A stretch of 64,000 nucleotides of DNA from an uncultured Elusimicrobia bacterium (GTDB lineage Bacteria > Elusimicrobiota > Elusimicrobia > UBA1565 > UBA9628), in the NCBI GenBank assembly GCA_903881545.1, contig CAIRTQ010000094.1, positions 1,479-65,478 of the forward strand. Direction: 5' to 3'. Positions 1 to 48,553 of the stretch are shown piece by piece. The notes under the pieces are model-generated. The model saw only the letters and a list, made by a program, of their open reading frames with translations. It had not been told where the DNA came from and made no database searches. Within the stretch, counting starts at the first letter, position 1, and the number at the start of each line of letters is the position of its first letter. The translations under genes and the position numbers were made by a program.

Positions 1-98
1 GCTTGCGCTCCACCAGCCCCCGGGCGATATCTCCCGCCACCTTCACATCGGGCGCTGTCACGAGGACGACGCGGAAATGCGTGCCTGGGATCATAACT

Positions 99-34206: not shown

Positions 34207-34444
34207 TTCAATCCTCTTGCCGGCCTCGTGGGAATTTGGGCTCATGAATAATAGCATGATTGAGGCGCGAGGGAAAACCGCGCATCAAATCATATGAAAC
34301 ATTAAGAGTGTCCCTAAGTCGTACGTGGCGTGGTTTTTGTACGCCCGCTCGCCGATGTTGGCGAGCGGAACCGGAGGCCGAAGGCCGACGGAGCTGTGGC
34401 CGTCATTTGGATACGCTCCCGGCTTCGTTTCCGGGATATATCAA

Positions 34445-34516
34445 GTTATCTCCGACCTTATCTCCGACCTTATCTCCGACCTTATCTCCGACCTTATCTC
34501 CGACCTTCTCCCGCGC
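34445..34516. repeat. 12-nt direct tandem repeat (C/G)TTATCTCCGAC x5 plus a degenerate 6th unit
   Basis: Read directly from the sequence: gttatctccgac followed by four copies of cttatctccgac, then cttctcccgcgc. On the minus strand it encodes (KVGD)n. Confidence 0.85.
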
Positions 34517-34660
34517 CTTTAACGAACGCTCTGGCGAGCGATGAAACACGGCTCGGAAAAATCCGTTCGCTTCGAACTCAGGCGCCTTGAGCCCCGCCTC
34601 GGCCATGGCGTCCTTCATCCGCTTCATGCGCTGCGCCACTTTATGAAAGAGTTGCTGACA
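34445..34660 (-). pseudogene. Remnant of a RecG-like/AlbA_2-HATPase_c_4 'putative transcriptional regulator' gene (C-terminal fragment only)
   Basis: Minus-strand frame encodes ...AQRMKRMKDAMAEAGLKAPEFEANGFFRAVFHRS followed by the (KVGD)5 repeat. The GL.xPEFE...F.V.F.R motif matches the C-terminal region of this regulator family. No N-terminal ATPase part is present. Confidence 0.35.
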
Positions 34661-34792
34661 CCTTGCTGCGACATAGGCACAAGAGCGCAGCTGGGGCTTG
34701 CGGGGAGCAGCCGCTTAGGTGCATTCCGCTAACAGTACAAGCTGCATCTTTCGTCGAGAGAGTTGGTTTCAGGGCCGACTTGTTGGCGCAAA

Positions 34793-37700
34793 CTACTCCT
34801 TCTCAAACCCATGATTTTCGAACTTGAGGGTACGGCAATTCTCGGTGACGGTACGGACTACATGGTCTGGAACACCGAATGGGATATTCGCCTCGACCTC
34901 CAGGGTGACCTTGACCTCGGAGCCCACGATCCCGGCGAGGTGCGCGATAACCTCGTCGGCAATGCGGCCGGCGTCGCGGCCGACCCGCGTTGTTTCAAGC
35001 GTTACGCTCCCATGGAAACGCTTCGGTGGCGCCGCCACTACAGCAACCTTGGCGCTGGGAGTGCTGCTTCCCGACACCGCGATTGATGGGCCGCCGGACC
35101 CATTGGAAGGTTTCGCCGCCTCGTCCGGCGCTTGAGGGGCTTCGACTGCCAGTTGACGTTGGGCAGCATCTGGACGTACTATCAGGCCCAATGGACTGTC
35201 CTCGGCAATCCAGATGTGTTGACCGAAACGGAGACCACGATAACGGCCTGCGGTTTCGTCAAAACTCTCGGCATAAGCGAAAGAGTCTTGCATCCAGGTC
35301 AACAGAGCAAGGCCGCTCAAGATCGCATCGATGAGAACGGCTGAATCCTTTAGCCGCGGTAGATAGAGATACCGAGCGAAGTCCTCAGCTAATTGCTGGA
35401 TCGCCACATGATCCCCGCCGGCCTGTGCCGTATCCCGCGATGCGGCTGGCGCGCGCCACAGAGGGACCTGATCCAATTCCAATCGCAACCGGCTGGCCGC
35501 TAGCCCCGTAATCAAGAGTTCATCTTTACACAGCTTCTTGCTTGCACGAACCGCCAACGCATCCTGGCCTGTAAGACGGAAGGACTGCCATTCGACTGGT
35601 CCTTGTGGGGTTGCCTGTGTAGGCACAATCAACCACTGGTAGGTTTCTGGCAATCGGGCCGCAACCGCGCTGCTGGCGTTTTCCTTCTGTGCTACAGCCT
35701 GCTTGCTCTGGTGTGGGTCAAGATTGAGCGTTTCCGCTTCGTCGACGATGGAGGACCACGCCAGAAATCGGCGGATGGCCTCGTCCAGGTCTTGAAGCCG
35801 GTTTTTATCGGGCGCGAGAAAAACCAGGGCGTTACGGTAGATGCGCGGAGCGGTCCCGCGATTCTGCACCATCTCTTTCGCGGCCGCGATGGCCGGGCTC
35901 TCCGTGTCCTTAGTGTGCGGATACTCAATGCCGAATACGACCAGCCGAGCGTCCTTATCATCAGGCACGTCACCCGATGTCTTCGGCAATGGATGGATGC
36001 GGCTGAAGTCTCCGGCCTTGCGCAAATCATTGCGGAGCCACTTGCCGACTTCTTCCGCCACGGCATCCGGGTCCGACTTGAGTTGCTCGGCTCGGTCATC
36101 GGCCAGTTTCGTCACCGTCGGCTGTGTCGAATACCAATAGCGAGCAGAATCCTGGTAAAGAAAGGTTGCGGCACCGGCGAGCCGGCGCAAAGCATCGCCG
36201 AAGATGGCCGGCGACTCACCCGGCATCACGCAGCCCAACTTAATCCACCTGTCCTCCAGGCCCTTGTGGGCCGCCTTGGCTGTTGGGGCCGAACCAAGAT
36301 AGACTGTTCGCGCCACACGGCGGCAGGCGGAGTACTTGCCGAGGTTCGGCGTTTCCGCGTCAATGCGCAGCGGAACCGAGTTGGGGCCATCCACATCCTT
36401 TTCGATCACCGGCACCCAGTTGTCGGAGAGATAGCGGGTCAATTCGAACTGCACGCGAGGGTCGTCAATCGGGATATTTGAAGGCAGGATCAACGGACTG
36501 CGGTCGCCTTTCTCCCAGAGGCTGTGGATCACGGTGGCCATCAGACGCAGGACGCCCCGGGTGCGCTGGAACTTCACCAGCGTGGACCAGTCGTTGTACA
36601 GCCGATCAAAGACCTCTGGATGAATAGGATAGGCGGCCTTCAGCCGCCTCTCGTAGTCGCTATCGTGGCACTCCGGTGGAAACTCCGCCTGCTGGGTGCG
36701 ATAGAGGTCGAAGAACGCCTTTGCCACGGTGTCGCGGGCGACAAACTGGTCCTGCTCGATCAAGGGCTCGAACAGCCGCCGGCGCACGATCTCGAACCCC
36801 TCTTCGGCGCTGGCCGGCCGCCAAGATGCTTCCACGCGGCCAATCGAATTGCGCAGGCGGTCAAGCGCGGCCCGGCCGCGCTCACCGCCCACCTCTATGT
36901 CATCGGCCTGCGCGTGTGGCGACCCGGTCGTATCGGACGCCGGCAGACTAACCACCAGCAAGCACTGCTTCGCAAGCTTGGCGGATTCCGTGAGCGCCTG
37001 GGCGAAGGTGAAGTGCGTCTCGAAGTTGCCGCCTGGCAGGTCGCCCTGATCGTGGAGTTGGCGGGCGTAGGCTACCCATTCGTCAATGAGGATCAGGCAC
37101 GGACCGTAGTCGTTGAACAGGGCACGCAGTGCATCCCCGGGATTCGTGGCTCTCTCATCGTCCGCCTGAATGCGCTTAAAAGCCTTCTTAGCTTCTTTCT
37201 CACCGCCAGCCGAGTAGCCGAGCTGCCAAGCGATTTCCCCCCACAAGGTGCGGATCACGGTTCCGCCTGGCTTGGTCACCGGGTTGCCGGGGGAAATCTT
37301 GTTGCCCACCAAAACAACTCGATTGACCTTCGGCAGCTTGGTCACTTCGGCGTGCTGGAGGACCGAGTCCACACCAAGAAGCTCTCCGGGCGCGATGCCG
37401 GAGAAGAGGTGATAGAGGGCCAGCATGGAATGGGTTTTGCCCCCCCCGAAGTTCGTCTGGAGCTGAACGACCGGATCGCCACCCATGCCGCTAAGCCTCT
37501 GGGCGGCACTGGCCAGCAAGCCCCGCAAACTTTCCGTGAGGTAGGTGCGGCGGAAGAATTCCTTCGGTTTGCGGTACTCGTCCGAACCTTCGCCTAAATG
37601 AACCTGCCATAGGTCGGCGGCGAACTCCGCCTGCTGATACTTCCCGCTGGCCACGTCCTTGTGGGGACTCGCAACCTCCTTCCAAGGTTTAAGCCCGGCT

Positions 37701-38194
37701 TGCGCCTGTGTCTCGATGGTTGTGCTGGCGCTCTTGCGCTTTTCCGTGCGCACTTGCTCGTCGAAGCGTACGCGGAGCAATTCCATCTTCATCTTTTCGA
37801 CTTCGTCCGCCTCCGGTGCGGATACGGAAGCCAGAAGCCGGGCGGCGCTGTCCAGGGCGCGGTAGGCGTCGTCGGTGCTGAAGGGCCGCTGATGCGCCCA
37901 GCGATTGCGGGTTTCCCGCAACTCGCTGACTAGCGTGCGTTCGGCCTGCCCCAAGGTTTTGCGGAAAACATCGTTCCACTGGTTCCACATCGTAACGAGG
38001 ATGGCGGATGCATCCCACTGCGGCGCCTCCGGGGTTCCTAGGAGTTGAAGCTGGGAATCGGCGAGGGTGCGCTTTGTGTCAGCGAACCAGTTCGGCGGAT
38101 TGGTGTTTTTTAGCTCGCGCTCGACGAAGGGTTTTAGGCCTGACGACAGCAACTCCAACATCTTGCCGACGCGTTCGTGATTGGTAATGGCCAT
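34793..38194 (-). CDS. DUF499-family P-loop ATPase (BrxC/PglY/HmaC-like) with an N-terminal Swt1-like HEPN domain
   Basis: 1133 aa. The N-terminal ~130 aa carry a HEPN R-x4-H motif (RNRWAHQ). Walker A (NFGGGKTHS) and Walker B (CLILIDEWVAY). Size and architecture fit DUF499 defence ATPases. Confidence 0.8.
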   Translation of the reverse strand: MAITNHERVGKMLELLSSGLKPFVERELKNTNPPNWFADTKRTLADSQLQLLGTPEAPQWDASAILVTMWNQWNDVFRKTLGQAERTLVSELRETRNRWAHQRPFSTDDAYRALDSAARLLASVSAPEADEVEKMKMELLRVRFDEQVRTEKRKSASTTIETQAQAGLKPWKEVASPHKDVASGKYQQAEFAADLWQVHLGEGSDEYRKPKEFFRRTYLTESLRGLLASAAQRLSGMGGDPVVQLQTNFGGGKTHSMLALYHLFSGIAPGELLGVDSVLQHAEVTKLPKVNRVVLVGNKISPGNPVTKPGGTVIRTLWGEIAWQLGYSAGGEKEAKKAFKRIQADDERATNPGDALRALFNDYGPCLILIDEWVAYARQLHDQGDLPGGNFETHFTFAQALTESAKLAKQCLLVVSLPASDTTGSPHAQADDIEVGGERGRAALDRLRNSIGRVEASWRPASAEEGFEIVRRRLFEPLIEQDQFVARDTVAKAFFDLYRTQQAEFPPECHDSDYERRLKAAYPIHPEVFDRLYNDWSTLVKFQRTRGVLRLMATVIHSLWEKGDRSPLILPSNIPIDDPRVQFELTRYLSDNWVPVIEKDVDGPNSVPLRIDAETPNLGKYSACRRVARTVYLGSAPTAKAAHKGLEDRWIKLGCVMPGESPAIFGDALRRLAGAATFLYQDSARYWYSTQPTVTKLADDRAEQLKSDPDAVAEEVGKWLRNDLRKAGDFSRIHPLPKTSGDVPDDKDARLVVFGIEYPHTKDTESPAIAAAKEMVQNRGTAPRIYRNALVFLAPDKNRLQDLDEAIRRFLAWSSIVDEAETLNLDPHQSKQAVAQKENASSAVAARLPETYQWLIVPTQATPQGPVEWQSFRLTGQDALAVRASKKLCKDELLITGLAASRLRLELDQVPLWRAPAASRDTAQAGGDHVAIQQLAEDFARYLYLPRLKDSAVLIDAILSGLALLTWMQDSFAYAESFDETAGRYRGLRFGQHIWIAEDSPLGLIVRPDAAQRQLAVEAPQAPDEAAKPSNGSGGPSIAVSGSSTPSAKVAVVAAPPKRFHGSVTLETTRVGRDAGRIADEVIAHLAGIVGSEVKVTLEVEANIPFGVPDHVVRTVTENCRTLKFENHGFEKE

Positions 38195-38197
38195 GGA

Positions 38198-40027
38198 TTA
38201 CTCCGTTTGGGACAGCTTTGGCGTGTCCAACACCACAATGTCCTTAAAGTGTTCCGCCAGCCGATCTAACTTCTCGGCCACTTCAGGAGGCAAGTCGCTG
38301 GATGCGACGTCCTCGATCATTTGGCAATATTCGCCCTTTCGCAGAAGGACTGGCTGCTTTTGCCGCCGCGCGAACTCCTCGAACACGCCTTCGGCGAATT
38401 CGCTCATCTTGAGGTTACTGAGTAATGTCTTCTGCAAGCTGGCACTGGCCGTCTTATACTCGTCAAGCTGCTGGCGATCTCCAGCAAACACCTTCTTCAG
38501 AAGATGCTCATCCAGCACCTCCTGCATCGTTTTGACGTTCGACTCGGTGAACAAACCGCCTTCCTGATCGAAGACGCCGACAACAAATTTCAGAATGAGA
38601 TCAGGAGTAATATAGTAATTCTCAATCTCATAGCGTTGCCAATAAAGGATATCCAGGCCCTCCCCGCTTTCATCAGACAAGTCCCGCGCATCCTTGTCCA
38701 GAATGGCCAATCCCTTAAACTCCGGCACCAGTCCCTTCATGGCATGAAAATGGCGCTTAATGTTTTCCTGGAATGCCCCGCCCAGCCGATCTAGTTGATT
38801 GTCGAGCGTGTCGGCGGGCCCGACATTACGCGTGTAGTAGTAGTTGATGCGCCCCGCGAGCACCCCTGACGCAGGATGTTTAAGCTTCGCCGCGAGCGCC
38901 TTGAGCGTGTCAAAATCCGTGGATCCTTCGATATAGAGGATTCGGGGACACACTCGCGCTTTGTAGTAATGCTCGACCCCGAATGTCCGCAACGAGTTTC
39001 GCACGTTCTGCATCGTTGCAAGGTCGGCGGCCGTCCCATTAATAAGCAACGTCAGGTTGGTCTCGATCGCGTCGTCCAGAATGACTTCCGAATGTGTGGC
39101 CACCACAACTTGACTATTGTTCTCCGCCGCCACGTCCTTAAGCATCTCATAAACTTGTTTCTGCCGTAAAACTTCGAGATGAGCATCCGGTTCGTCAATC
39201 AGAAGCACGCTGCCCTTATTTGTGTAGAGATAGGAAAGGATCAACAGCATTTGCTGGAACCCACGCCCTGCCAGCGCGATGTCCATGTCGGCGTCAGTAT
39301 CTGGCTGGCTATAGCGCACGACCAATTCGCCGCGCTTCTCGTCTAGGCGTGGTCTGCCGAGCGCAACACCGAACAGTTTCTGGATCAGACGACCGATGCG
39401 GTCCCAATCTTCTGTTCTCTTTTCCTTGTCGTTCTCAACGACCTTGAAGCAGAGGTTGCGGAGCACCTGCGCCGTCTGGCCTTGCCCCAGCAGGACGTTA
39501 ACGCGGCCCTCGGGCACGAGGGTTTCGACCGGCTCAATTCCTGACATCGGGTAGAGCAAATGAAATGGGATGCTGCTCGCATGCGCAATTAGAGCATCGT
39601 CCTTCAGCGTCTCCTCACACGGCCGGCAGTAAAGGACCTCGCTGTCACGCACGGTAAACTCCATGCGACAGTCCTTGACCAGTCCGCCGTGCTCGACGCC
39701 CACATTGACCGTCAAGCGAATGGAGGCATTGTCCTTCCGCACCCGCATTCGGTTCCACAAAAAGCGATTCTCGGAGACCGGCACCTCAAGGATGCTCAGC
39801 CGGTTGATGCCTGCTGCGACCCGCTCTCTCTTTTCCTTCTGCCGAGGCCGGCCCTTGCGCTCGTACCATGCCTGCACGCCGCGGCTCCATAGGGCGAGGG
39901 CCTGGATCACGCTGGTTTTCCCGGCATTGTTTGGTCCGATCAGTACGGCAGGATGTCCCAGGTCCACATGAATTTTCCCACCAAATATCTTAAAGTTCTC
40001 GATTTCGACATAACGAATGCCTCGCAT
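38198..40027 (-). CDS. ABC-type (AAA_15/AAA_21, OLD-family-like) ATPase fused to a C-terminal DUF4435/TOPRIM-like domain (single-polypeptide PARIS AriA-AriB-like)
   Basis: 609 aa with Walker A (GPNNAGKTS), Walker B (VLLIDEPDAHLE) and H-loop (VVVATHS). The C-terminal ~200 aa carry YIEGSTDFD and DKDARD motifs resembling DUF4435 (YVEG ... DRD). Confidence 0.7.
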   Translation of the reverse strand: MRGIRYVEIENFKIFGGKIHVDLGHPAVLIGPNNAGKTSVIQALALWSRGVQAWYERKGRPRQKEKRERVAAGINRLSILEVPVSENRFLWNRMRVRKDNASIRLTVNVGVEHGGLVKDCRMEFTVRDSEVLYCRPCEETLKDDALIAHASSIPFHLLYPMSGIEPVETLVPEGRVNVLLGQGQTAQVLRNLCFKVVENDKEKRTEDWDRIGRLIQKLFGVALGRPRLDEKRGELVVRYSQPDTDADMDIALAGRGFQQMLLILSYLYTNKGSVLLIDEPDAHLEVLRQKQVYEMLKDVAAENNSQVVVATHSEVILDDAIETNLTLLINGTAADLATMQNVRNSLRTFGVEHYYKARVCPRILYIEGSTDFDTLKALAAKLKHPASGVLAGRINYYYTRNVGPADTLDNQLDRLGGAFQENIKRHFHAMKGLVPEFKGLAILDKDARDLSDESGEGLDILYWQRYEIENYYITPDLILKFVVGVFDQEGGLFTESNVKTMQEVLDEHLLKKVFAGDRQQLDEYKTASASLQKTLLSNLKMSEFAEGVFEEFARRQKQPVLLRKGEYCQMIEDVASSDLPPEVAEKLDRLAEHFKDIVVLDTPKLSQTE

Positions 40028-40039
40028 AGCTTTACCCCT

Positions 40040-41506
40040 TTAGAACAGCTCTGCCTGCGGTGTCTGAGATTCCCCGTCCTTGCGTGATAGGCGGGCCAAT
40101 TCCGGCCAGCCCATCACCAGCGCATTATAGCTTTGAGCGCCCTTACTCCACTGCTTCTTCTCGCAGACGGTGAACAGTTTATAGGCCAGGTCGCGGGCCA
40201 CATCCGCTTTACCGCCCAACTTGCGCAAGAGCGCCGCTGTGGCCGCGTCGCCTCGCTTCTCGGATACATACACGCGCAGCAGGTGATGGGTCATCTCCCA
40301 TACTGTCAGGCGCTTGTCCGTAGTGGGATCCCAGTCAGCCGGCAACTCCTCCGGACGAAGAAGACGGACCTGGTTGCCCTTGACCTCCACGATGCCAGCG
40401 GCGACGAGGCCATTCATGGCAGTGGCCTGCGCATTGGCCAGCAGGTTGGCCTGTCCGGCCTCGCCCCATTCAAATCCCGTGCCGGCGAACCAGGTCACCG
40501 CCCACCGCGTGTCCTTGTCGAGTTCCTCAACGGCCTCACCAAGCAATTCATCCTTCATGCCGTTGATGAGGGCCAGCGCGGTGCGAACGGCCATCGGCTT
40601 GCCATTGCTCTCCAACACGGCGGAGTAGCGGGAAAAGACCGCCATGCCGGGACCGATGGCCGCTTGCGCAAAGTCCACCGGGGCCACGTTGCCCTGTTGT
40701 AGATGGTGTAGCGCTGGCGGTAGCTCGCGTTTTAACTCTGCCACGAACGCATTCCGGCCGACTCGTAGCGCATCCGCCGGGCGCGGCCTACAGGCGAGCA
40801 CGATGTAGGAGGCTAGAGCGTTGGAACCCATCGCGCGCATTCGCCATGCTTGCGATGCGCGTACCGGCCACGTCCCAGTAATCTGGAAGTTGCTTGAGAT
40901 CAGTGCGTCAAGGAGCGTCTCCCAGCCTGTTGTGAGATCAATTCCCGCGGCCTCCGTCGATGCTTCATCCGCACCGCTTCCCTCGTCGTCTTGCTTGAAA
41001 GCGTAGTAAACGGTAAGCGGGAAGTGCGGATCCATCTCGTCCCGCAGGGCCGTGAAAGCCTTCCGGAATCCCGTCTCAAAATGTTGCTTAGCCCTTTCCT
41101 TGTCGCCCTCGAACCGGTCGGGAGAGGCGATCAGTTCCGTCATCTTGGGGACGAGCACGGTACGGAAAATGTCCGGATAATGTTCTCCGATTGTGCGTCT
41201 CAGCCAGACATAGGAGAAGTCCGACAGCGCGCCGTAGCTAATATTGTCGTAGTAGGGCGGATCGGTGCTGACCAGCAAGTTGCGGAGGCCGTTTGCGCCG
41301 GGGCAGCGTCGGCTTGGTGGACTGTCGCTACGGCTTCCGGATTCGGCGTTATCGTCTGAATGGCATCTGCGCATATGTCGACCGCGGTGTGCCAGCACAC
41401 GGCTTTTTCGCCCATTATGTTTGGCTCGACGAAGTCCCAGACCAACCGAATGACCTGTAGTCCGAAGAGATCCATTGACTGCTGACCACTCGCTTTCCAC
41501 CGGCAC
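40040..41506 (-). CDS. DUF1156-family N6-adenine DNA methyltransferase, C-terminal part (real portion begins near nt 41300, containing DPPYYDN motif IV)
   Basis: LLVSTDPPYYDNISY... and the downstream C-terminal domain. Upstream of about 41300 this frame is R/S-rich nonsense. Confidence 0.75.
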   Translation of the reverse strand: MPVESEWSAVNGSLRTTGHSVGLGLRRAKHNGRKSRVLAHRGRHMRRCHSDDNAESGSRSDSPPSRRCPGANGLRNLLVSTDPPYYDNISYGALSDFSYVWLRRTIGEHYPDIFRTVLVPKMTELIASPDRFEGDKERAKQHFETGFRKAFTALRDEMDPHFPLTVYYAFKQDDEGSGADEASTEAAGIDLTTGWETLLDALISSNFQITGTWPVRASQAWRMRAMGSNALASYIVLACRPRPADALRVGRNAFVAELKRELPPALHHLQQGNVAPVDFAQAAIGPGMAVFSRYSAVLESNGKPMAVRTALALINGMKDELLGEAVEELDKDTRWAVTWFAGTGFEWGEAGQANLLANAQATAMNGLVAAGIVEVKGNQVRLLRPEELPADWDPTTDKRLTVWEMTHHLLRVYVSEKRGDAATAALLRKLGGKADVARDLAYKLFTVCEKKQWSKGAQSYNALVMGWPELARLSRKDGESQTPQAELF

Positions 41507-42870
41507 AGAGCATTATTGAAGTCTGCGCAGCGATCAACCGCGAGGGCAAGAAACGTCGCCACCGACTGGGCATAGGCACCGGCCTCTGCATGGGTCCAAC
41601 CCGCCGCAATAGCATCGCGCCGCACGTCCGCGTCGATCTCCTTTACTAGGTCACTCAAAGTCACCATTGCCGTGAGCTGCCGGGGAGTAAAAAGCTGCCA
41701 GTGCTTCCGAATGCCGTAGTTCTGAACCCGGAAGCCTAGTGCTTCATCGGGAAGATCTGTATCTGGGAAGCCCTGCGGTTTGGCTGAATTAGCGGCCTCG
41801 ACCTGCTCCGGGCTTATCGGGATATAAGTACGACCGCGGGGGAGCTCAGCTACAACTGCGAGCATGACGCATCCCAGCCGACCACTTTGCCCTTCACTGC
41901 GAATGTACTCAAATGGGATGGGTGCGTCGGTGAGCAGGCACCGAAACCCCCCCCTGCCTCCCTTCGTTCCCTCATCAATTTGTGTCCGATTTACGGGCGC
42001 TCCCGTCCGCACCACAAACCGGTAAGTACACTTGGCCTTGTCCACCACCGGCTCCATCCAGTGATAAGGCGGCTTCTTGTCCTTCCTTGGGGAATTCAGC
42101 CAATACGTGCTGATGAGCGGCACATGGATGCCTCGTGCCGCAGGGTTCGGGCTAGCAACCGTGCGAGCCCAAATCCATGCGATGACGTTGGCCTCGCCGC
42201 TTCCATTTTCCTTAGGCAGGTGCACCTTAGGGTAAAGACTTCCAATCTTCGCATACGCTCTATGGCGAACCAGCCGCCCGTAGTAGCGTACGTCGGCTGC
42301 GAGTCCGTTCGCGCCGTGCCAAGACTGTGTACCTCCAATCCGCTTACGGTCCTCCGAATTTACGGGCGGTCTATTCACCCAGCGCGGCGCAAGCTCCAGA
42401 TTGCACTTGTTGAGCATCACTGCGATAGGATTTAGGTCGCCTGCGTGGGCTTCAAATCCAAGTCGGTTAGCCTCAAGAGGGATGGATCCACCGCCGGCAA
42501 ACGGGTCAAGCACGGGCGGGAGCTTTCCGTCGCAGTGCTTGAGCATCTCCTCCTGTGCCTCAGCATAGACCTCCGGATGTTCATGGAGTTTCTTGCCCAT
42601 GAGTCGCCGGATGATCCCGAACAGTCGCTCCCGCTCAGCATCCTGCTTGGCCTCGCTCTTGCCCGCCCACGCCGGATTATCCGAAGGATCGGTCACGACC
42701 GAAGCGAACAGCACCGCCCGCGCGGTCGGCAGCGGCAACCGCGCCCACCAGTGGTGGATGCCCTTCGGATGCGGCCCGATTCCCGGCATCTTGTCGTAGG
42801 ACGACGCATCGTTGATCTCTGGCAGCGGGAGCGCCACCTCGATAAGCTTCTTTTTATACGGAACCGTCAT
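41200..42870 (-). CDS. DUF1156-family N6-adenine DNA methyltransferase, N-terminal part (real portion 42870 down to about 41300; frameshifted relative to the C-terminal part)
   Basis: Starts MTVPYKKKLIEVALPLPEIN (DUF1156 signature N-terminus) with SAM-binding DPFAGGGSIP (motif I). The frame degenerates after about 41300. Its ATG overlaps the PIN gene's TGA stop as ATGA. Confidence 0.75.
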   Translation of the reverse strand: MTVPYKKKLIEVALPLPEINDASSYDKMPGIGPHPKGIHHWWARLPLPTARAVLFASVVTDPSDNPAWAGKSEAKQDAERERLFGIIRRLMGKKLHEHPEVYAEAQEEMLKHCDGKLPPVLDPFAGGGSIPLEANRLGFEAHAGDLNPIAVMLNKCNLELAPRWVNRPPVNSEDRKRIGGTQSWHGANGLAADVRYYGRLVRHRAYAKIGSLYPKVHLPKENGSGEANVIAWIWARTVASPNPAARGIHVPLISTYWLNSPRKDKKPPYHWMEPVVDKAKCTYRFVVRTGAPVNRTQIDEGTKGGRGGFRCLLTDAPIPFEYIRSEGQSGRLGCVMLAVVAELPRGRTYIPISPEQVEAANSAKPQGFPDTDLPDEALGFRVQNYGIRKHWQLFTPRQLTAMVTLSDLVKEIDADVRRDAIAAGWTHAEAGAYAQSVATFLALAVDRCADFNNALCRWKASGQQSMDLFGLQVIRLVWDFVEPNIMGEKAVCWHTAVDICADAIQTITPNPEAVATVHQADAAPAQTASATCWSAPIRPTTTILATARCRTSPMSG

Positions 42871-43418
42871 GGGCACGCTCTGAGCAGGCGCGGATGAGAG
42901 GTCAAAACATCGATCCCGCCAGAGGTGAAATCGCCATCGTTGGTGACCAGTTTCCAGCCATGATGACGGCAAGTCTCGGCGAGGAGGCCGTCGTTGAAGT
43001 CATTCACTCCAGTCTCAAAGTCAGCAAGTACTTGCGTGACGTTGGCGGCGGAAAATGGATGGTCGTGCCTAGTGCAGAGTTTAAGCATTTCTCGTGCGTA
43101 CGTGGCGGCGCCTGCCCCCACAGACTTAAAAGCGGGGGATTTGCGGAACATTTTAAAGTCCGGCTGCGCCGCCTTGTGTAATGCAATCCACTCGATCCGG
43201 CAGTAGCGGTTGAGGTACTCGCTGAGGATCAGTGCATCCATAACCAGGCGTGATCCAGCGGTCAGTATGCCCTTCAGGGCGTTCGAATAGCTGGCAGCAC
43301 GCCAATCGGGCTTATTGGACGGGGCCGGATAGAGGTAGAGCCAGACATTGGCATCCAGCAAAAAGGGCTCGTTCTTCTGGAAAGCATACTTGGAGAGGTC
43401 GTGAGCTTTATTCTTCAT
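42867..43418 (-). CDS. PIN-domain nuclease (VapC-like)
   Basis: About 183 aa from MKNKAHDL. Conserved acidic residues in LLDANVWL, DALILSEY and TNDGDF. Confidence 0.7.
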   Translation of the reverse strand: MKNKAHDLSKYAFQKNEPFLLDANVWLYLYPAPSNKPDWRAASYSNALKGILTAGSRLVMDALILSEYLNRYCRIEWIALHKAAQPDFKMFRKSPAFKSVGAGAATYAREMLKLCTRHDHPFSAANVTQVLADFETGVNDFNDGLLAETCRHHGWKLVTNDGDFTSGGIDVLTSHPRLLRACP

Positions 43419-43767
43419 TATTGCCCACCTCTTCCTTCCACGCCGCATCAAATCGTTTCGGGGCTTTGAAATACGCCTTAGCGTTTTCGACCACGCGCTT
43501 GAGGACTATGCGGTCTTCCTCATCCATGTCGCGGACCGAAAGCAGTTCCCTAATTCGGTCTTCAGGGAACTTGCCGTAGAGCTGCCCAATCGCGGCGTTG
43601 AGGAAAGACGAGATCATCGTCTCCACCTGCTCAAAGGAGAGGGAAACTTTCTTCCCCTCGCTCAGCAGGAGAGCGATCTTGTCGTAAACGCGTTGGCCAT
43701 CATCGGCAGATACGCCCAACGGACCACCGACGATATCGAATACACGAACCACAATTGGCTCACTCAT
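43408..43767 (-). CDS. DUF4325-like (STAS-like) small protein
   Basis: 119 aa (MSEPIVVRVFDIVGG...GKKVSLSFEQVETMISSFLNAAIGQLYGKF) resembling the STAS-like DUF4325 family. Overlaps the PIN gene by 11 nt. Assignment is from memory of the family and is unverified. Confidence 0.45.
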   Translation of the reverse strand: MSEPIVVRVFDIVGGPLGVSADDGQRVYDKIALLLSEGKKVSLSFEQVETMISSFLNAAIGQLYGKFPEDRIRELLSVRDMDEEDRIVLKRVVENAKAYFKAPKRFDAAWKEEVGNNEE

Positions 43768-43785
43768 CTTTCCACTCCATTCTGT

Positions 43786-44655
43786 TTAGAAAATGCTCTC
43801 TGGCGGTATCTCCGACGCCAGAACATAGGATTCTGTGTCGGCAGTGTTGATCTCGATGGTCACGGCCGTACCAGGGAAATCTGCAGCCATCTTCGCGAAG
43901 GACTCCTGGCCATCGCCGAACTCGTAAAATCCGAATCGGGAGGCGATCTGAATTCGGCCCTTGTTCAGCCGGACGAATTCCTGAAGAAACTTCAGGCCCA
44001 ATCCCCCCGGTTGAGGCCCTCTCTTCGTGGTATGGCCCTCCTGCAATGCCCAGCGAATCGCATCAACAGAAGACATTTTGCCGCCGAGAAATCGGCGGAC
44101 GCTTTCCCTAATGCCAATGCCCGCATCCACAATCGTCAGATCGAGTCTTTGCTTCTGCGGGAAGAACTGTCCGCAAACGAAGATCCCGAGTTCTGACTCG
44201 GAATGAATCACGGCATTCTGGAAGACCTCAAAAATCTTCTTCTTAAACACTTTGCCGAGCCCTTCGGACATGCGAGGAATGCCCTTGCCTCTCAGGTGCC
44301 GTTCCACGTAATCGGCAAAGAGCCCTTCGTCCGAACGCTGGAGGCGGCGAAACGGAATGGTGGTTCGGTTCACGTCGTCCAACGCCGGGTAACGGTATTG
44401 CGTCAAGAAACCGTTTTTCCGCAAGATGTGTTCCACCATTTCCGGAACGCTGACCACTTCAATGGCATTGAAGCGATCTGCTACTCGCGCCAGCACCGCC
44501 CCGAGAGGGGCAGCCATGTTGGCGGCGAAAAAACCGACTTGGGACAGATCGAGTTCCAAACGACTGGCCGAAAGCATAGCAGTTTCTCTGGCCAACTCCG
44601 CCAGCCGTTCGTATCCATCCCGGCCGCTTTGGACTGTTGGCAAGCGGGAGATCAT
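43786..44655 (-). CDS. GHKL-superfamily ATPase (histidine-kinase/RsbW-like ATP-binding domain) with an unknown N-terminal domain
   Basis: 289 aa with N-box (EVFQNAVIHS), G1 (IVDAGIGI) and G2 (GGLGLKF). Its ATG overlaps the helicase TGA as ATGA. Confidence 0.7.
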   Translation of the reverse strand: MISRLPTVQSGRDGYERLAELARETAMLSASRLELDLSQVGFFAANMAAPLGAVLARVADRFNAIEVVSVPEMVEHILRKNGFLTQYRYPALDDVNRTTIPFRRLQRSDEGLFADYVERHLRGKGIPRMSEGLGKVFKKKIFEVFQNAVIHSESELGIFVCGQFFPQKQRLDLTIVDAGIGIRESVRRFLGGKMSSVDAIRWALQEGHTTKRGPQPGGLGLKFLQEFVRLNKGRIQIASRFGFYEFGDGQESFAKMAADFPGTAVTIEINTADTESYVLASEIPPESIF

Positions 44656-47600
44656 GATGGCGCTCCAGCCCGCTCTAGCAAATCTGCAAAATTGTAATTT
44701 ACGCTGGTCACGCCGAAGTCTGGCTCCCGCCGGAAAGGGTGGCGGACATAATGAACCCGCTGTTTCTCGCCGTCGAATTCAACGATGGCGAGAATGAAGT
44801 CATCGGGTTTGTTGAGCGAGTACAGGATTTCATTCTTGGTGACGGTGATCGTGGCGGCGCCCGTGACGCGTCCCTTCACCTCAATAAAGCGCAGCCGCCC
44901 GGTGCCAGGCACGCGGCTCTCGATGTCGTAGCCCAGCTTCTCGGTCTCGCGGTCGGCGGGGATGAAGCCCAGGCCGCGCTCGACCATCATCACGGCCTCG
45001 CGTGCTCGCGCTGCCGCGGCCAAGGTGTCGGCTGCGACGCGTGGGAGTTCGGCGGAATGACCTGTCATGGCGGCAAGCAGGCCCGCAGGTATCACCACAA
45101 GGCCGCCCAACACGACCGGGGGCAAAGGGGCGATCTGCCGTTCGAGTTTGAGTTCCTCCATCCGCTTCTGCAACCGTCCCTGAAGGGCATCCGCGCGTTT
45201 CCGCGCTTCATCCGAGTTAAGTCGCGCATTAGGCCTGCCCGCCTGTTCCTGGAGCTTAAGCTCTTCGGCGCGGTGGTCCCAATAGCTGATCTCCTTCGTC
45301 AATCGGTCCTGCACCGCCGCCTCGGTCTTAGCAATGAGATCGAGCTTGCGCGCGCGAACCTCATTAAGGTGTTCGGGCACGACATTCGCGACGGCGTACC
45401 CCTGCGCTTTTTGCTCCAGTTCTCGGGTTATCCAAGCGCATTCCGGTCGGGCCAATATCGCGTCCACCGCCGGTTCGCCGTCCGCCAACGGGCGATAATC
45501 CAGGTAGGGCGCATAATGCGGATTGCGCGCGTTGCCGTCCGCCTCCAGTTCCACATAAAGCATCCGCTTGGATATGACGCGACGCTCCCCCGCCGCCATG
45601 GCGGCGGCAGGCAGGCCCGTCCGTGCCAGGCTTGCGTCCTGAATGGCATGCTCCAGATAAAAGAGTACGCGAGGGCGTGTCCCGCAGTCGCGCTCGTCGA
45701 CCAGCACCGTGCCGCGGCGCAGCAAATCGCGATGGCGTTCAAGGGTGAGGTCTATGGTGACGTCCAGTAACGGGTGCCCCGGGCACAGGAATGCGGCCAG
45801 TGGCTGGCCCTGCGGAGCGACCAGGGATTTCTCAAAGGCAACCCGCTCGTAGCGCGACAACAACGGCTCGGCGATTCCAATGAGCCGGTCGCGATTGCGC
45901 AGAGGAGATGGGACATGCGCGATCTCATAGCGGCGCGGTTCGCGCTGCTTAACCGAACCCCCCAAACGCTGGAAGGCATCGAGGAAGAAAGATTCAACGT
46001 AATGGGGTTGCAAACGACGCGCCTCGGCTCGCTCCATCTCCTCGCGAATGCGGTACACGCGAGTGGCGTCCATCGCGTCGTGCGCGAGAGCATGTTCTTC
46101 GAGCAAATCGCGCAACTTGGCAGGGTCCACGGAATTGGCGACCACTTGCGTAAGCTTGGCGCGAACATCGGGGCGTTCCCCGTAACGAATCGCCTCGATC
46201 AAGAGCTCACGCAGAGGTTTTCCCCCAAATTGGAGCTTCCCTAGCACATCAAAGACTTGGCCTCCCAGGGTTTCCCGGGCCTGTTCCAGCTTTTCCAGCA
46301 GAGTTCGGTATACGTCTCCCTCGCGGGTTTCTTCGGCGACGAGATTCCAAAGATGACAGACTTCGGTCTGTCCAATGCGATGAATACGGCCGAACCGTTG
46401 CTCGATACGGTTCGGATTCCATGGCAGATCATAATTCACCATCAGGTGCGCCCGCTGGAGGTTAATCCCTTCGCCAGCGGCATCCGTCGCCAAAAGGACC
46501 TGAACTGCGGGATCGTGTTTGAATGCTTCCTGCGCCTTCATCCGCTCCTCACGGCCCATGCCGCCATGAATCATCACTACTGCTTCCTTTCGCCCAAGAA
46601 GGGTCGTAATTCGATTCTCTAAGTAGTTGAGGGTGTCGCGGTGCTCGGTGAAGAGGACAAGTTTCTGGCGCGGGGACGAAGTCGGCGGCGGGATTGTCGC
46701 AGACCCGTGAGTGAGTGGGCGCTCAGCCACCTGGGTGGCATGGATGGCGGACGTGAAGATTTCGTTTAACAGTTGGGAGAGCTCACGCCACTTCTTATCC
46801 TCACCGCTCCGGCGGAGCGTGAGCGCCAGCGCTTCAAGGCGCTTTAGCGTCGTGATTTCCGCTTTCAGTTCCGAGATTGTTCGCGCCGCGGTCGACTGGT
46901 CGAGAATCTCCTCTTCCGCCGTCTCGACCTCATTATCAGGGGCGTCTTCGAGATCTTCAACATCCTCATCATCCAGCACCGGGATCCCGGCCGCCATGGC
47001 AGGCGCGGTTACGCTCCCCCGCTGGAGTAATTTCAACTCTTCCAGTTTGCTTTCCAACCGTTCGCGACGACGACGCAACGACTGATAGATGGCTTCAGGC
47101 GACGAGGCCAAACGGCGCTGCAAAATAGTGAGCGCAAAACCGACGGTGCCGGCGCGCTTATCGTTCTGAAGCGCATCAGCCCGGTTGAACTCCTCGCGAA
47201 CGTAGTCGGTCACTTCCTTGTAGAGTTGCGCCTCCGCATCGGAGAGCTTGTATGGAACAGTGTAGGCTATCCGTTCCGGAAACAGCGGAGTCGCATCGAA
47301 CTTGAGCAGCCCTTCCTTGACCATGCGCCGCATCAGATCAGAGGCGTCAGAGGCGTGAACGCCATCACGGAAGCGTCCCTCGAATCTATCCCCATCGAGG
47401 AGCGCCATGAAAAGCTGAAAATCCTCTTCCTTGCCATTGTGCGGCGTCGCGGTCATCAGCAAGAAATTCCGGGTCATAGTGGAGAGAAGCTGACCGAGCT
47501 TGTAGCGCTTCGTATACTTGACCTCGCCATTGAATATGCTGGCGGACATCTTATGCGCCTCGTCGCATACGATGAGATCCCATCGGCAGTCGGGAGCTCT

Positions 47601-48257
47601 CAGCTTGTCTTGAACATCCTCATTGCGCGAGAGCTTGTCGAGCCGGGCGATGACCAGGTTTGTCTCAAGGAACCAGTTGCCAGTGCGAGCGGATTCCAGC
47701 TTGTCATTGGTCAATATCTCAAAAGGCAGGTGAAATCGACGATAGAGCTCATCTTGCCATTGCTCGGCCAGACTGCCTGGACAGACCACCATACAACGAT
47801 GCAGGTCTCCTCGGGCAATTAACTCCTTCATGAGGAGCCCTGCCATGATTGTCTTGCCCGCGCCAGGGTCGTCGGCCAACAAAAAGCGCAGGGGTTGACG
47901 CGGCAGCATCGTGTCGTAGACCGCCGTGATCTGGTGCGGGAGTGGCTCAACTACTGAGGTGTGGACGGCAAGGACCGGGTCAAACAAATGGGCCAATCGG
48001 ATCCGATGAGCTTCGGAGACTAGGCGAAACAGCGCGCCATCCCCATCAAAACTCCATGGCCGTCCTTGAAGGGCCACCTCGACACGCGCTTCGTCCTGAC
48101 GATATAAAAGCTCGTTAGACACTTTACCGGCTGGGTCTTTGTAGGTTAACTCAAGGGCGTCCGAGCCGAACCACTGAACATTGACGACAGAGACAAGGCA
48201 TTCCGGTAAAATGCCTCTTACTGAAGCGTTCGGTTTTAGTTCCTCTAGCTTGCTCAT
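44652..48257 (-). CDS. SNF2/DEAD-like superfamily-2 helicase with C-terminal DUF3883 (HmaA-like)
   Basis: 1201 aa from MSKLEELKPN. Motif I (LADDPGAGKT), motif II (DEAH), helicase C-terminal motifs (LLATDAAGEGINLQ, QRFGRIHRIGQ). C-terminal domain (IEVKGRVTG...TKNEILYSLNKPDDFILAIVEF) typical of DUF3883. Confidence 0.85.
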   Translation of the reverse strand: MSKLEELKPNASVRGILPECLVSVVNVQWFGSDALELTYKDPAGKVSNELLYRQDEARVEVALQGRPWSFDGDGALFRLVSEAHRIRLAHLFDPVLAVHTSVVEPLPHQITAVYDTMLPRQPLRFLLADDPGAGKTIMAGLLMKELIARGDLHRCMVVCPGSLAEQWQDELYRRFHLPFEILTNDKLESARTGNWFLETNLVIARLDKLSRNEDVQDKLRAPDCRWDLIVCDEAHKMSASIFNGEVKYTKRYKLGQLLSTMTRNFLLMTATPHNGKEEDFQLFMALLDGDRFEGRFRDGVHASDASDLMRRMVKEGLLKFDATPLFPERIAYTVPYKLSDAEAQLYKEVTDYVREEFNRADALQNDKRAGTVGFALTILQRRLASSPEAIYQSLRRRRERLESKLEELKLLQRGSVTAPAMAAGIPVLDDEDVEDLEDAPDNEVETAEEEILDQSTAARTISELKAEITTLKRLEALALTLRRSGEDKKWRELSQLLNEIFTSAIHATQVAERPLTHGSATIPPPTSSPRQKLVLFTEHRDTLNYLENRITTLLGRKEAVVMIHGGMGREERMKAQEAFKHDPAVQVLLATDAAGEGINLQRAHLMVNYDLPWNPNRIEQRFGRIHRIGQTEVCHLWNLVAEETREGDVYRTLLEKLEQARETLGGQVFDVLGKLQFGGKPLRELLIEAIRYGERPDVRAKLTQVVANSVDPAKLRDLLEEHALAHDAMDATRVYRIREEMERAEARRLQPHYVESFFLDAFQRLGGSVKQREPRRYEIAHVPSPLRNRDRLIGIAEPLLSRYERVAFEKSLVAPQGQPLAAFLCPGHPLLDVTIDLTLERHRDLLRRGTVLVDERDCGTRPRVLFYLEHAIQDASLARTGLPAAAMAAGERRVISKRMLYVELEADGNARNPHYAPYLDYRPLADGEPAVDAILARPECAWITRELEQKAQGYAVANVVPEHLNEVRARKLDLIAKTEAAVQDRLTKEISYWDHRAEELKLQEQAGRPNARLNSDEARKRADALQGRLQKRMEELKLERQIAPLPPVVLGGLVVIPAGLLAAMTGHSAELPRVAADTLAAAARAREAVMMVERGLGFIPADRETEKLGYDIESRVPGTGRLRFIEVKGRVTGAATITVTKNEILYSLNKPDDFILAIVEFDGEKQRVHYVRHPFRREPDFGVTSVNYNFADLLERAGAPS

Positions 48258-48553
48258 TTGAGAAGACGCATCCCAGCATCCCATCGCCCGGTAGAAAATG
48301 ATTCTATAAAACCAGCACTAGGCCGGGCTAAGCGCAAGGGCACCATTCAGTCGAGTAGGAGATTTTAGCATGATTGGGCCATCGGGATGCGGCAGACTGA
48401 CAATAGTGCTGGCCGAACTCGACGGCGATAGGACGTAAACTGGTCTCCTCGGCGGCACCTGCGCTTCGCTTAGTGCCGCCGGTTGCGCCCGGCATACGGC
48501 CGCCGGGCGCTCGCTACGGCAAAGCCCGAACTTTATTGTCCCTTATCCGGCGG

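Follow-up and report, generated by a model that had tools for sequence, protein, structure and literature searches.

A probable VapKSC-type kinase, STAS-antitoxin and PIN-toxin module embedded in an Hma operon of an uncultured Elusimicrobia bacterium

A 64,000-nucleotide (nt) stretch of DNA from an uncultured Elusimicrobia bacterium (GenBank assembly GCA_903881545.1, contig CAIRTQ010000094.1), hereafter referred to as the window, carries three adjacent genes encoding a GHKL-type ATPase of 289 amino acids (aa), a STAS-like protein of 119 aa, and a PIN-domain protein of 183 aa. Comparison with solved structures, with a characterized Escherichia system, and with related genome loci revealed that the three genes are real and very probably constitute a VapKSC-type module of kinase, STAS antitoxin, and PIN toxin; they are referred to below as vapK, vapS, and vapC. 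The trio is a new example of an already described system and does not represent a new category, and it is located within an Hma operon. A preliminary description made from the nucleotide sequence alone had proposed that the ATPase and the STAS-like protein gate the PIN nuclease as a toxin or abortive-infection switch, and thus recovered the logic of a defense module that was characterized experimentally only in 2026.

The CapK/CapS system and a three-gene vapKSC operon derived from it were described by Chambers, Rani, Min, Villa, and Corbett (EMBO J, 2026; PMC13373217; preprint in February 2026; hereafter Chambers et al., 2026). In the crystal structure of the VapS2VapC2 complex of Escherichia sp. 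E4736 (PDB 9Z7O), the STAS protein binds the PIN toxin. Escherichia VapC is toxic and its D28A mutant is non-toxic, while VapS neutralizes VapC, an activity abolished by the phospho-mimic S48E or by deletion of the C-terminus. The Escherichia genes, which function in E. coli as an operon of these three genes alone, confer approximately 2 logs of protection against phage Bas42, and this protection is lost in the VapC D28A, VapS S48A, and VapK F54A mutants. In the model of these authors, single-stranded DNA (ssDNA) activates the kinase, the STAS antitoxin is phosphorylated, and the PIN toxin is freed. Phosphorylation dependent on ssDNA was demonstrated biochemically only for the paralogous CapK/CapS pair; for VapK the evidence consists of an AlphaFold 3 model and the lost phage protection in S48A and F54A (PMC13373217).

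For the comparisons below, Escherichia reference sequences were taken from the supplement of that paper, a table obtained by optical character recognition; VapK was corrected and numbered with the AlphaFold 3 coordinate (cif) file, and the VapS and VapC sequences are consistent with independent PDB matches. Residue conservation was counted over 71–78 non-identical homologues from genome loci.

The product of vapS matches DUF4325 ("STAS-like") in Pfam (E = 7e-19), and its best match among all PDB sequences is 9z7o_A, annotated as Escherichia VapS (E = 8e-12). Full-length alignment with Escherichia VapS gave 34% identity (BLASTP, E = 4e-17), in which the phospho-acceptor S48 aligns with S53 of the window protein. 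This position is a serine in 73 and a threonine in three of the 76 homologues, which agrees with the "absolutely conserved serine or threonine" noted by Chambers et al. (PMC13373217). The protein consists of a STAS domain followed by a tail from about residue 95; DUF4325 is its sole Pfam domain, and a winged helix-turn-helix (wHTH) domain is absent. The STAS-like, DUF4325-type assignment made earlier was therefore confirmed, the protein being homologous to a crystallized STAS antitoxin.

The product of vapC contains a PIN domain (Pfam, E = 1.4e-9). Its best PDB match is 9z7o_C, annotated as Escherichia VapC, over the full length (E = 4e-4), and a family profile built from 24 members matched this chain only in the PDB (E = 2.7e-13). 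Full-length identity to Escherichia VapC is 24% (BLASTP, E = 1e-7), and Escherichia D28 corresponds to D22 in the window. D22, E67, D143, and D161 occur in all 71 sequences compared, and D163 in 70 of them. The acidic residues singled out beforehand, D22 in LLDANVWL and D161/D163 in TNDGDF, are thus among the conserved ones.

VapK matches HATPase_c with E = 8e-6 (26.7 bits, barely over the cut-off of 26.4), and residues 16–82 give a sub-threshold match to STAS_2. A PDB sequence search with VapK alone yielded nothing meaningful, so a fold search was needed. The AlphaFold 2 model, with a predicted local distance difference test score (pLDDT) of 81.8, starts with a STAS domain and ends in a Bergerat fold, and the solved structures nearest to it are SpoIIAB, RsbW, the RsbW domain of Rv1364c, and UsfX. 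The 289 residues begin directly with a STAS strand, and both Pfam and the model indicate that an N-terminal helix-turn-helix (HTH) domain is absent. In full-length comparison the protein is 30% identical to VapK of Escherichia sp. E4736 over 287 residues (BLASTP, E = 5e-45). Its N box (N147, H151), G1 box (D177-x-G179-x-G181), and G2 box (G217-G218-x-G220) are all present, and N147, H151, D177, G179, G218, and G220 do not vary among the 78 sequences compared, one of which is Escherichia VapK; both the GHKL motifs and the Bergerat fold expected of this protein were thus recovered. The equivalent of N147 in CapK is N218, the asparagine mutated there. Escherichia F54, the aromatic residue of the predicted ssDNA site, corresponds to F42 in an ungapped BLASTP alignment, with the numbering checked in the AlphaFold 3 file, and 69 of the 78 family members have F or W at this position.

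Because PDB matches, pairwise matches, and locus-derived alignments agree, membership of the trio in VapKSC is considered settled. Residues tested by mutation in the published work are all kept in the window, namely F42 and N147 of VapK, S53 of VapS, and D22 of VapC. The kinase plus STAS-gated PIN switch proposed earlier is therefore supported by homology to Escherichia VapKSC together with retention of the tested residues. General profile collections gave little for these proteins: NCBIfam returned only far-sub-threshold histidine-kinase, SpoIIAB, and VapC matches (spIIAB for VapK, E = 0.004; VapC, 25.6 bits versus a cut-off of 73.6), and PADLOC-DB v2 returned no system-level match for the trio, its sole match being that of the GHKL domain to the N-terminal part of one DrmA model.

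By analogy with the Escherichia system, the window VapC would be a PIN nuclease toxin, presumably a ribonuclease (RNase) as in other VapC proteins, held inactive in a VapS2:VapC2 complex. VapK, a fused STAS and GHKL Ser/Thr kinase of the SpoIIAB/RsbW type, would be switched on by ssDNA arising in DNA damage or phage infection and would then phosphorylate VapS on Ser53. Phospho-VapS would leave VapC, and free VapC would arrest the growth of the infected cell. Toxicity of VapC, antitoxin function of VapS, and loss of VapC binding by a phospho-mimic at S53 are predicted from the Escherichia proteins, whereas the steps in which ssDNA triggers VapK and VapK phosphorylates VapS are suggested by CapK biochemistry, the AlphaFold 3 model, and the loss of protection in S48A and F54A. 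The genomic context points to the adjacent HmaA helicase-nickase as a possible source of the activating ssDNA, in which case the module would act as a second, suicidal layer behind Hma restriction.

Several points weigh against the assignment as a working VapKSC module. Identity to the characterized system is only 24–34%, and the trigger and RNA target could differ from those of Escherichia. Position 42 of VapK is non-aromatic in nine of the 78 family members. Escherichia VapK was insoluble, and the evidence that it is a kinase and responds to ssDNA comes from CapK experiments and an AlphaFold 3 model (PMC13373217). Neither VapS nor VapC is recognized by any PADLOC v2 model. Furthermore, a frameshift interrupts hmaB, immediately downstream of vapC, so that the operon around the trio could be in decay or wrongly assembled.

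All genes between positions 34793 and 48284 are on the minus strand and packed as a single operon, transcribed in the order hmaA, vapK, vapS, vapC, hmaB, an ABC-type ATPase gene, and hmaC (Table 1). The TGA of hmaA and the ATG of vapK share an ATGA overlap, as do the stop codon of vapC and the start codon of hmaB at 42870..42867. The spacer between vapK and vapS contains a GGAG-like ribosome-binding site. Both the 18-nt spacer and the 11-nt overlap between vapS and vapC given in the preliminary description, as well as the motifs listed there, were correct according to the open reading frame (ORF) list and the sequence. In the ORF list vapC begins at an upstream TTG (43451, 194 aa); the ATG at 43418, which yields the 11-nt overlap, fits the length of 183–184 aa of several homologues that cannot be extended upstream. 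A scan of the operon for promoters and terminators gave results at chance level only.

Table 1. Features of the Hma island in the window, with related trios in BREX type 3 loci (positions refer to the window, except in the last row, where they refer to the locus named)
Feature	Position	Strand	Evidence
hmaA, SNF2 helicase with C-terminal NOV_C/DUF3883 nuclease domain, 1210 aa	44652..48284	-	PADLOC HmaA; Pfam SNF2-rel_dom, Helicase_C, NOV_C
vapK, STAS + GHKL Ser/Thr-kinase-like protein, 289 aa	43786..44655	-	HATPase_c, STAS_2, AlphaFold 2 fold
vapS, STAS-like (DUF4325) putative antitoxin with short C-terminal tail, 119 aa	43408..43767	-	DUF4325, 9z7o_A
vapC, PIN-domain putative toxin, 183 aa	42867..43418	-	PIN, 9z7o_C
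hmaB, DUF1156 DNA methylase, two ORFs	40040..42870	-	PADLOC HmaB; Pfam DUF1156
hmaB frameshift site, C4 run on minus strand	41299..41303	-	Sequence read, tblastn
ABC/OLD-like ATPase between hmaB and hmaC, 609 aa	38198..40027	-	Pfam AAA_21, AAA_15
hmaC, HEPN_Swt1 + DUF499 ATPase, 1133 aa	34793..38194	-	PADLOC HmaC; Pfam HEPN_Swt1, DUF499
Trio inside BREX type 3, flanked by the genes for PglXI (methylase) and BrxH (helicase)	L053 2470-17597; also L040, L046, L047, L049, L050, L051		

The flanking genes were identified with PADLOC as hmaA (E = 0, profile positions 1–1171 of 1176), hmaB (E = 1e-146 and 1e-143, with profile positions 5–566 in the first ORF and 568–960 in the second), and hmaC (E = 0). 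The name Hma (helicase-methylase-ATPase) goes back to Payne et al. (2021), and HmaA has been shown to be a helicase that carries a PD-(D/E)xK nickase domain and protects against phage T4. In the 2026 survey of bacteriophage exclusion (BREX) systems in Nucleic Acids Research, such loci were relabelled as "DUF499-centred BREX-related" systems (type 1), and the presence of HEPN_Swt1 in type 1 BREX-related systems was remarked upon. In the window, HmaC contains an N-terminal HEPN_Swt1 domain (Pfam, E = 4e-37) and DUF499 (E = 1e-26), the former representing a potential second RNase effector in the operon. The position of the trio between a helicase and a methyltransferase had been called unusual. 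The flanking genes are hmaA and hmaB, and approximately 63–66% of Hma operons carry inserts: extra genes between hma genes, many of them defense systems, occur in 62.7% (Payne et al., 2024) or 66.5% (Liu et al., 2024) of the operons. The gap between hmaA and hmaB is thus a documented insertion hotspot rather than an oddity, and for this reason the position of the trio is not unusual.

The 609-aa ATPase encoded between hmaB and hmaC matches AAA_21 (E = 2e-22) and AAA_15, with a weak DUF4435 match in its C-terminal 270 residues (E = 0.017); the PADLOC models of AriA, GajA, Old, and HEC-01A fit it only weakly. Because its gene is missing from the closest Hma islands (L018, L008, L010, and L016), it is a second, separate embedded gene and a candidate defense gene.

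The 1-nt frameshift in hmaB lies within a run of four C residues (approximately 41299–41303), immediately upstream of the DPPY catalytic motif. Searches with intact homologues (tblastn) placed the frame switch between positions 41302 and 41299; such homologues have a single uninterrupted frame, and for that of L016, residues 1–517 align in one frame of the window and residues 519–936 in the other. The intact methylase frame expected of Hma is interrupted in the window. Either hmaB is truly inactivated, or the frameshift arose in assembly.

The nearest relatives are Elusimicrobia metagenome-assembled genomes with VapK identities of 93% and 86%; nucleotide similarity to them is confined to positions 34791..48389, and the flanks show no similarity to the related contigs. 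The GC content of this island is 0.55–0.62, compared with 0.63–0.71 in the flanks. Because the similarity stops at the island edges and the GC content is lower than that of the flanks, horizontal acquisition of the island is indicated. Neither a tRNA gene beside the island nor flanking direct repeats suggestive of an integration site were found around it. An intergenic 12-nt tandem repeat of about six copies, TTATCTCCGACC, is located at 34434–34517, just past the hmaC stop codon at the low-coordinate island edge.

VapK has 906 relatives in a protein collection clustered at 90% identity, the best 120 of which are 62–93% identical to the window protein. In a library clustered at 50% identity, 311 clusters have E <= 1e-30 and 1119 have E <= 1e-10; almost all of these proteins are about 290 aa long. 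To examine gene context, 80 loci were collected from species-representative genomes with two VapK peptide patterns, supplemented by contigs with close homologues, and annotated by phmmer with the window proteins. The order K-S-C was found in nearly every related locus long enough to show it (approximately 80 loci from many phyla), an arrangement far beyond chance.

Two contexts stand out in this sample, which over-represents relatives of the window VapK, so that the following fractions are not family-wide estimates. At VapK identities to the window of at least 58%, 28 of 33 distinct loci have Hma genes directly adjacent, usually in the layout HmaA-K-S-C-HmaB-HmaC as in the window, and sometimes as K-S-C-HmaB…HmaC-HmaA. 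A sister clade with approximately 50% VapK identity comprises about 13 loci in which the trio lies inside BREX type 3, in the order BrxC-PglXI-[K-S-C]-BrxH-PglZ-BrxA; these calls were made with PADLOC on L053 and by phmmer with the L053 proteins on the other loci. The cassette is therefore placed between a methylase and an SNF2 helicase in both Hma and BREX type 3. Four further loci have the trio adjoining type I HsdR, and in the remaining ones neither Hma, BREX type 3, nor type I HsdR, the only contexts searched for, was detected in the available flanks.

Coupling of the trio to its Hma neighbors is also conserved. ATGA or GTGA stop-start overlaps are kept at the hmaA/vapK junction in about 16 loci and at the vapC/hmaB junction in 20 loci. 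Pairwise divergences of VapK and HmaA are correlated across 22 loci (Mantel r = 0.66, with none of 2000 permutations reaching this r). Outliers such as L079, with 39% identity in VapK and 65% in HmaA, point to independent capture or swapping.

Departures from the common layout were also observed. Four loci of the clade that is otherwise embedded in Hma (L031, L032, L035, and L036; 10001–11815), from Candidatus Multivorans and a gammaproteobacterium, contain the trio at 61–64% VapK identity and no Hma gene within 9–10 kb, which suggests that the cassette is able to leave the Hma context. VapC is truncated to 99–143 aa in the Latescibacterota loci L006, L007, and L021 (11106–11537). In L048 (6444–14592), many short ORFs stand in place of HmaA, the trio, and HmaB, although HmaC is intact, a fragmentation that may reflect indel errors of long-read assembly.

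Hma embedding of VapKSC was not reported by Chambers et al. (2026), who proposed cross-talk with restriction-modification only for adjoining CapKS. Their published list of 289 vapKSC loci includes the PADLOC labels brex_type_III, DMS_other, and RM_type_I, and the label "hma" is absent from it (PMC13373217). Nitrosomonas eutropha Nm57 (L059), whose VapK is approximately 50% identical to that of the window, is a strain included in this list. Our results suggest that default PADLOC neighborhood calls under-report the association between VapKSC and Hma. Systematic embedding in Hma and in BREX type 3, together with coupling to them, is the only new angle of the present analysis, the Hma association being apparently unreported before. 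The added value is contextual, in that a large and highly conserved VapKSC clade resides in Hma and a sister clade in BREX type 3, which offers a concrete and testable case of layered immunity, in which restriction would make ssDNA and a kinase-released RNase toxin would stand behind it.

A further possibility, which we put forward only tentatively and regard as rather doubtful, is that VapKSC in this clade, instead of being a free-riding cassette, is hard-wired into Hma-type and BREX-type-3 immunity as a second layer. VapK may sense ssDNA that the neighboring SNF2 helicase-nickase (HmaA or BrxH) produces on unmodified DNA, or that arises when a phage inhibitor stalls restriction. This idea is based on the placement between methylase and helicase in two families, the ATGA coupling, the correlation between VapK and HmaA, and the nickase-helicase nature of HmaA. 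If true, failure or overload of restriction would be converted directly into PIN-mediated abortive infection.

Other explanations of the locus were considered. The trio might serve mainly as an addiction module that stabilizes the Hma island, the STAS antitoxin being labile and the PIN toxin stable, with little or no direct anti-phage role. The low GC content of the island, its occurrence in unrelated phyla without synteny of the flanks, and the toxin-antitoxin behavior of VapS and VapC (PMC13373217) would fit such a role, and the correlated divergence of VapK and HmaA is consistent with a trio that travels with Hma. A conserved kinase would be needless for addiction, however, and of the three proteins VapK shows the highest conservation (62–93% among the best 120 relatives) and has an invariant active site; moreover, phage protection by the Escherichia operon depends on the kinase site and on the serine (PMC13373217). 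We consider addiction as the main role unlikely, although it is compatible with a VapKSC-type switch and the two are not mutually exclusive. Decay offers another explanation, in which the hmaB frameshift just before the DPPY motif marks a non-functional remnant and the trio is out of use. Truncated VapC in the three Latescibacterota loci and the fragmented island of L048 show that relatives can look decayed, but in the window the three trio ORFs are intact with all catalytic and regulatory residues kept, hmaA, hmaC, and the ATPase gene are also intact, and a single indel in a short homopolymer equally resembles an assembly error. A remnant thus seems improbable.

A dedicated regulator of Hma, which might for instance tune the amounts of hma transcripts or proteins or license restriction instead of operating as an autonomous toxin switch, would explain the translational coupling by ATGA on both sides of the trio, the retention of these junctions in about 16 and 20 other loci, and the Hma adjacency of 28 of the 33 loci of the clade; the related CapK/CapS pair does regulate neighboring immune operons transcriptionally (PMC13373217). 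VapS, at 119 aa, nevertheless lacks the wHTH domain through which CapS binds DNA as a repressor, the catalytic acidic residues of the PIN domain are invariant, the trio also occurs away from Hma (in BREX type 3, beside HsdR, or with none of these detected), and the Escherichia three-gene operon works alone in E. coli (PMC13373217), all of which make this role very unlikely. Classical partner switching on a sigma factor, as in RsbW/RsbV or SpoIIAB/SpoIIAA, with the PIN gene merely adjacent, is extremely improbable and is effectively refuted by gene content. In its favor, SpoIIAB and RsbW are the nearest structures to the GHKL domain, anti-sigma antagonists share the STAS fold, and a weak spIIAB match (E = 0.004) was obtained. 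In contrast, no sigma factor or PP2C phosphatase gene is present in the island (34791..48389), where all ORFs belong to Hma, the ABC ATPase, or the trio; the kinase carries a fused STAS domain that anti-sigma factors do not have; the PIN gene is invariably linked and overlaps vapS; and the crystal structure has the STAS protein bound to the PIN toxin (PMC13373217). The RsbW/RsbV logic invoked in the preliminary description hence stands as far as the GHKL/STAS pairing is concerned, but not in its details, since the STAS protein would itself be the antitoxin, the kinase is STAS-fused, and neither sigma factor nor PP2C phosphatase accompanies them.

With respect to known systems, the VapKSC-type module of the window differs from SpoIIAB/SpoIIAA and RsbW/RsbV in its STAS-fused kinase and in its predicted output, since a nuclease would be released in place of a sigma factor. 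It shares with type II VapBC a PIN-domain, VapC-like toxin that would be neutralized by the product of the overlapping upstream gene, whereas its antitoxin is a STAS protein instead of a DNA-binding VapB and a third gene, the kinase, would control release. A plain VapBC pair was rejected, the gene upstream of vapC encoding a STAS/DUF4325 protein and no VapB-type antitoxin. PIN domains of this kind were set apart by Matelska et al. (2017) as group PIN.4, "transcriptionally coupled to DUF4325." Similar to other Hma operons with embedded cassettes, the window contains HmaA, HmaB, and HmaC with extra genes in the hmaA-hmaB and hmaB-hmaC gaps, but the trio is not among the tested HEC-01..09 or PDC candidates, VapS and VapC having no PADLOC match. 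HEC-03 pairs a PIN protein with an ABC ATPase, not with a GHKL kinase, and lacks a STAS protein. In the available supplements of Payne et al. (2024), a study with 376 Hma-embedded cassettes, neither DUF4325 nor STAS is mentioned.

The closest likeness is to CapK/CapS and, above all, to Escherichia VapKSC. In CapK/CapS, an ssDNA-activated STAS and GHKL kinase phosphorylates a conserved serine of a STAS partner, and the genes often adjoin restriction-modification systems; CapK differs in an extra N-terminal HTH, CapS is a transcriptional repressor with a C-terminal wHTH, and a PIN toxin is lacking. A repressor of the CapKS type was rejected for the window, where the kinase has no HTH and the STAS protein no wHTH. 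Escherichia VapKSC and the window trio have the same gene order and domain architectures, full-length homology, and the same critical residues (F54/F42 and the N-box asparagine in VapK, S48/S53 in VapS, and D28/D22 in VapC). The two differ in context: the Escherichia operon has no PADLOC match within 10 kb, whereas the window copy is translationally fused into an Hma operon.

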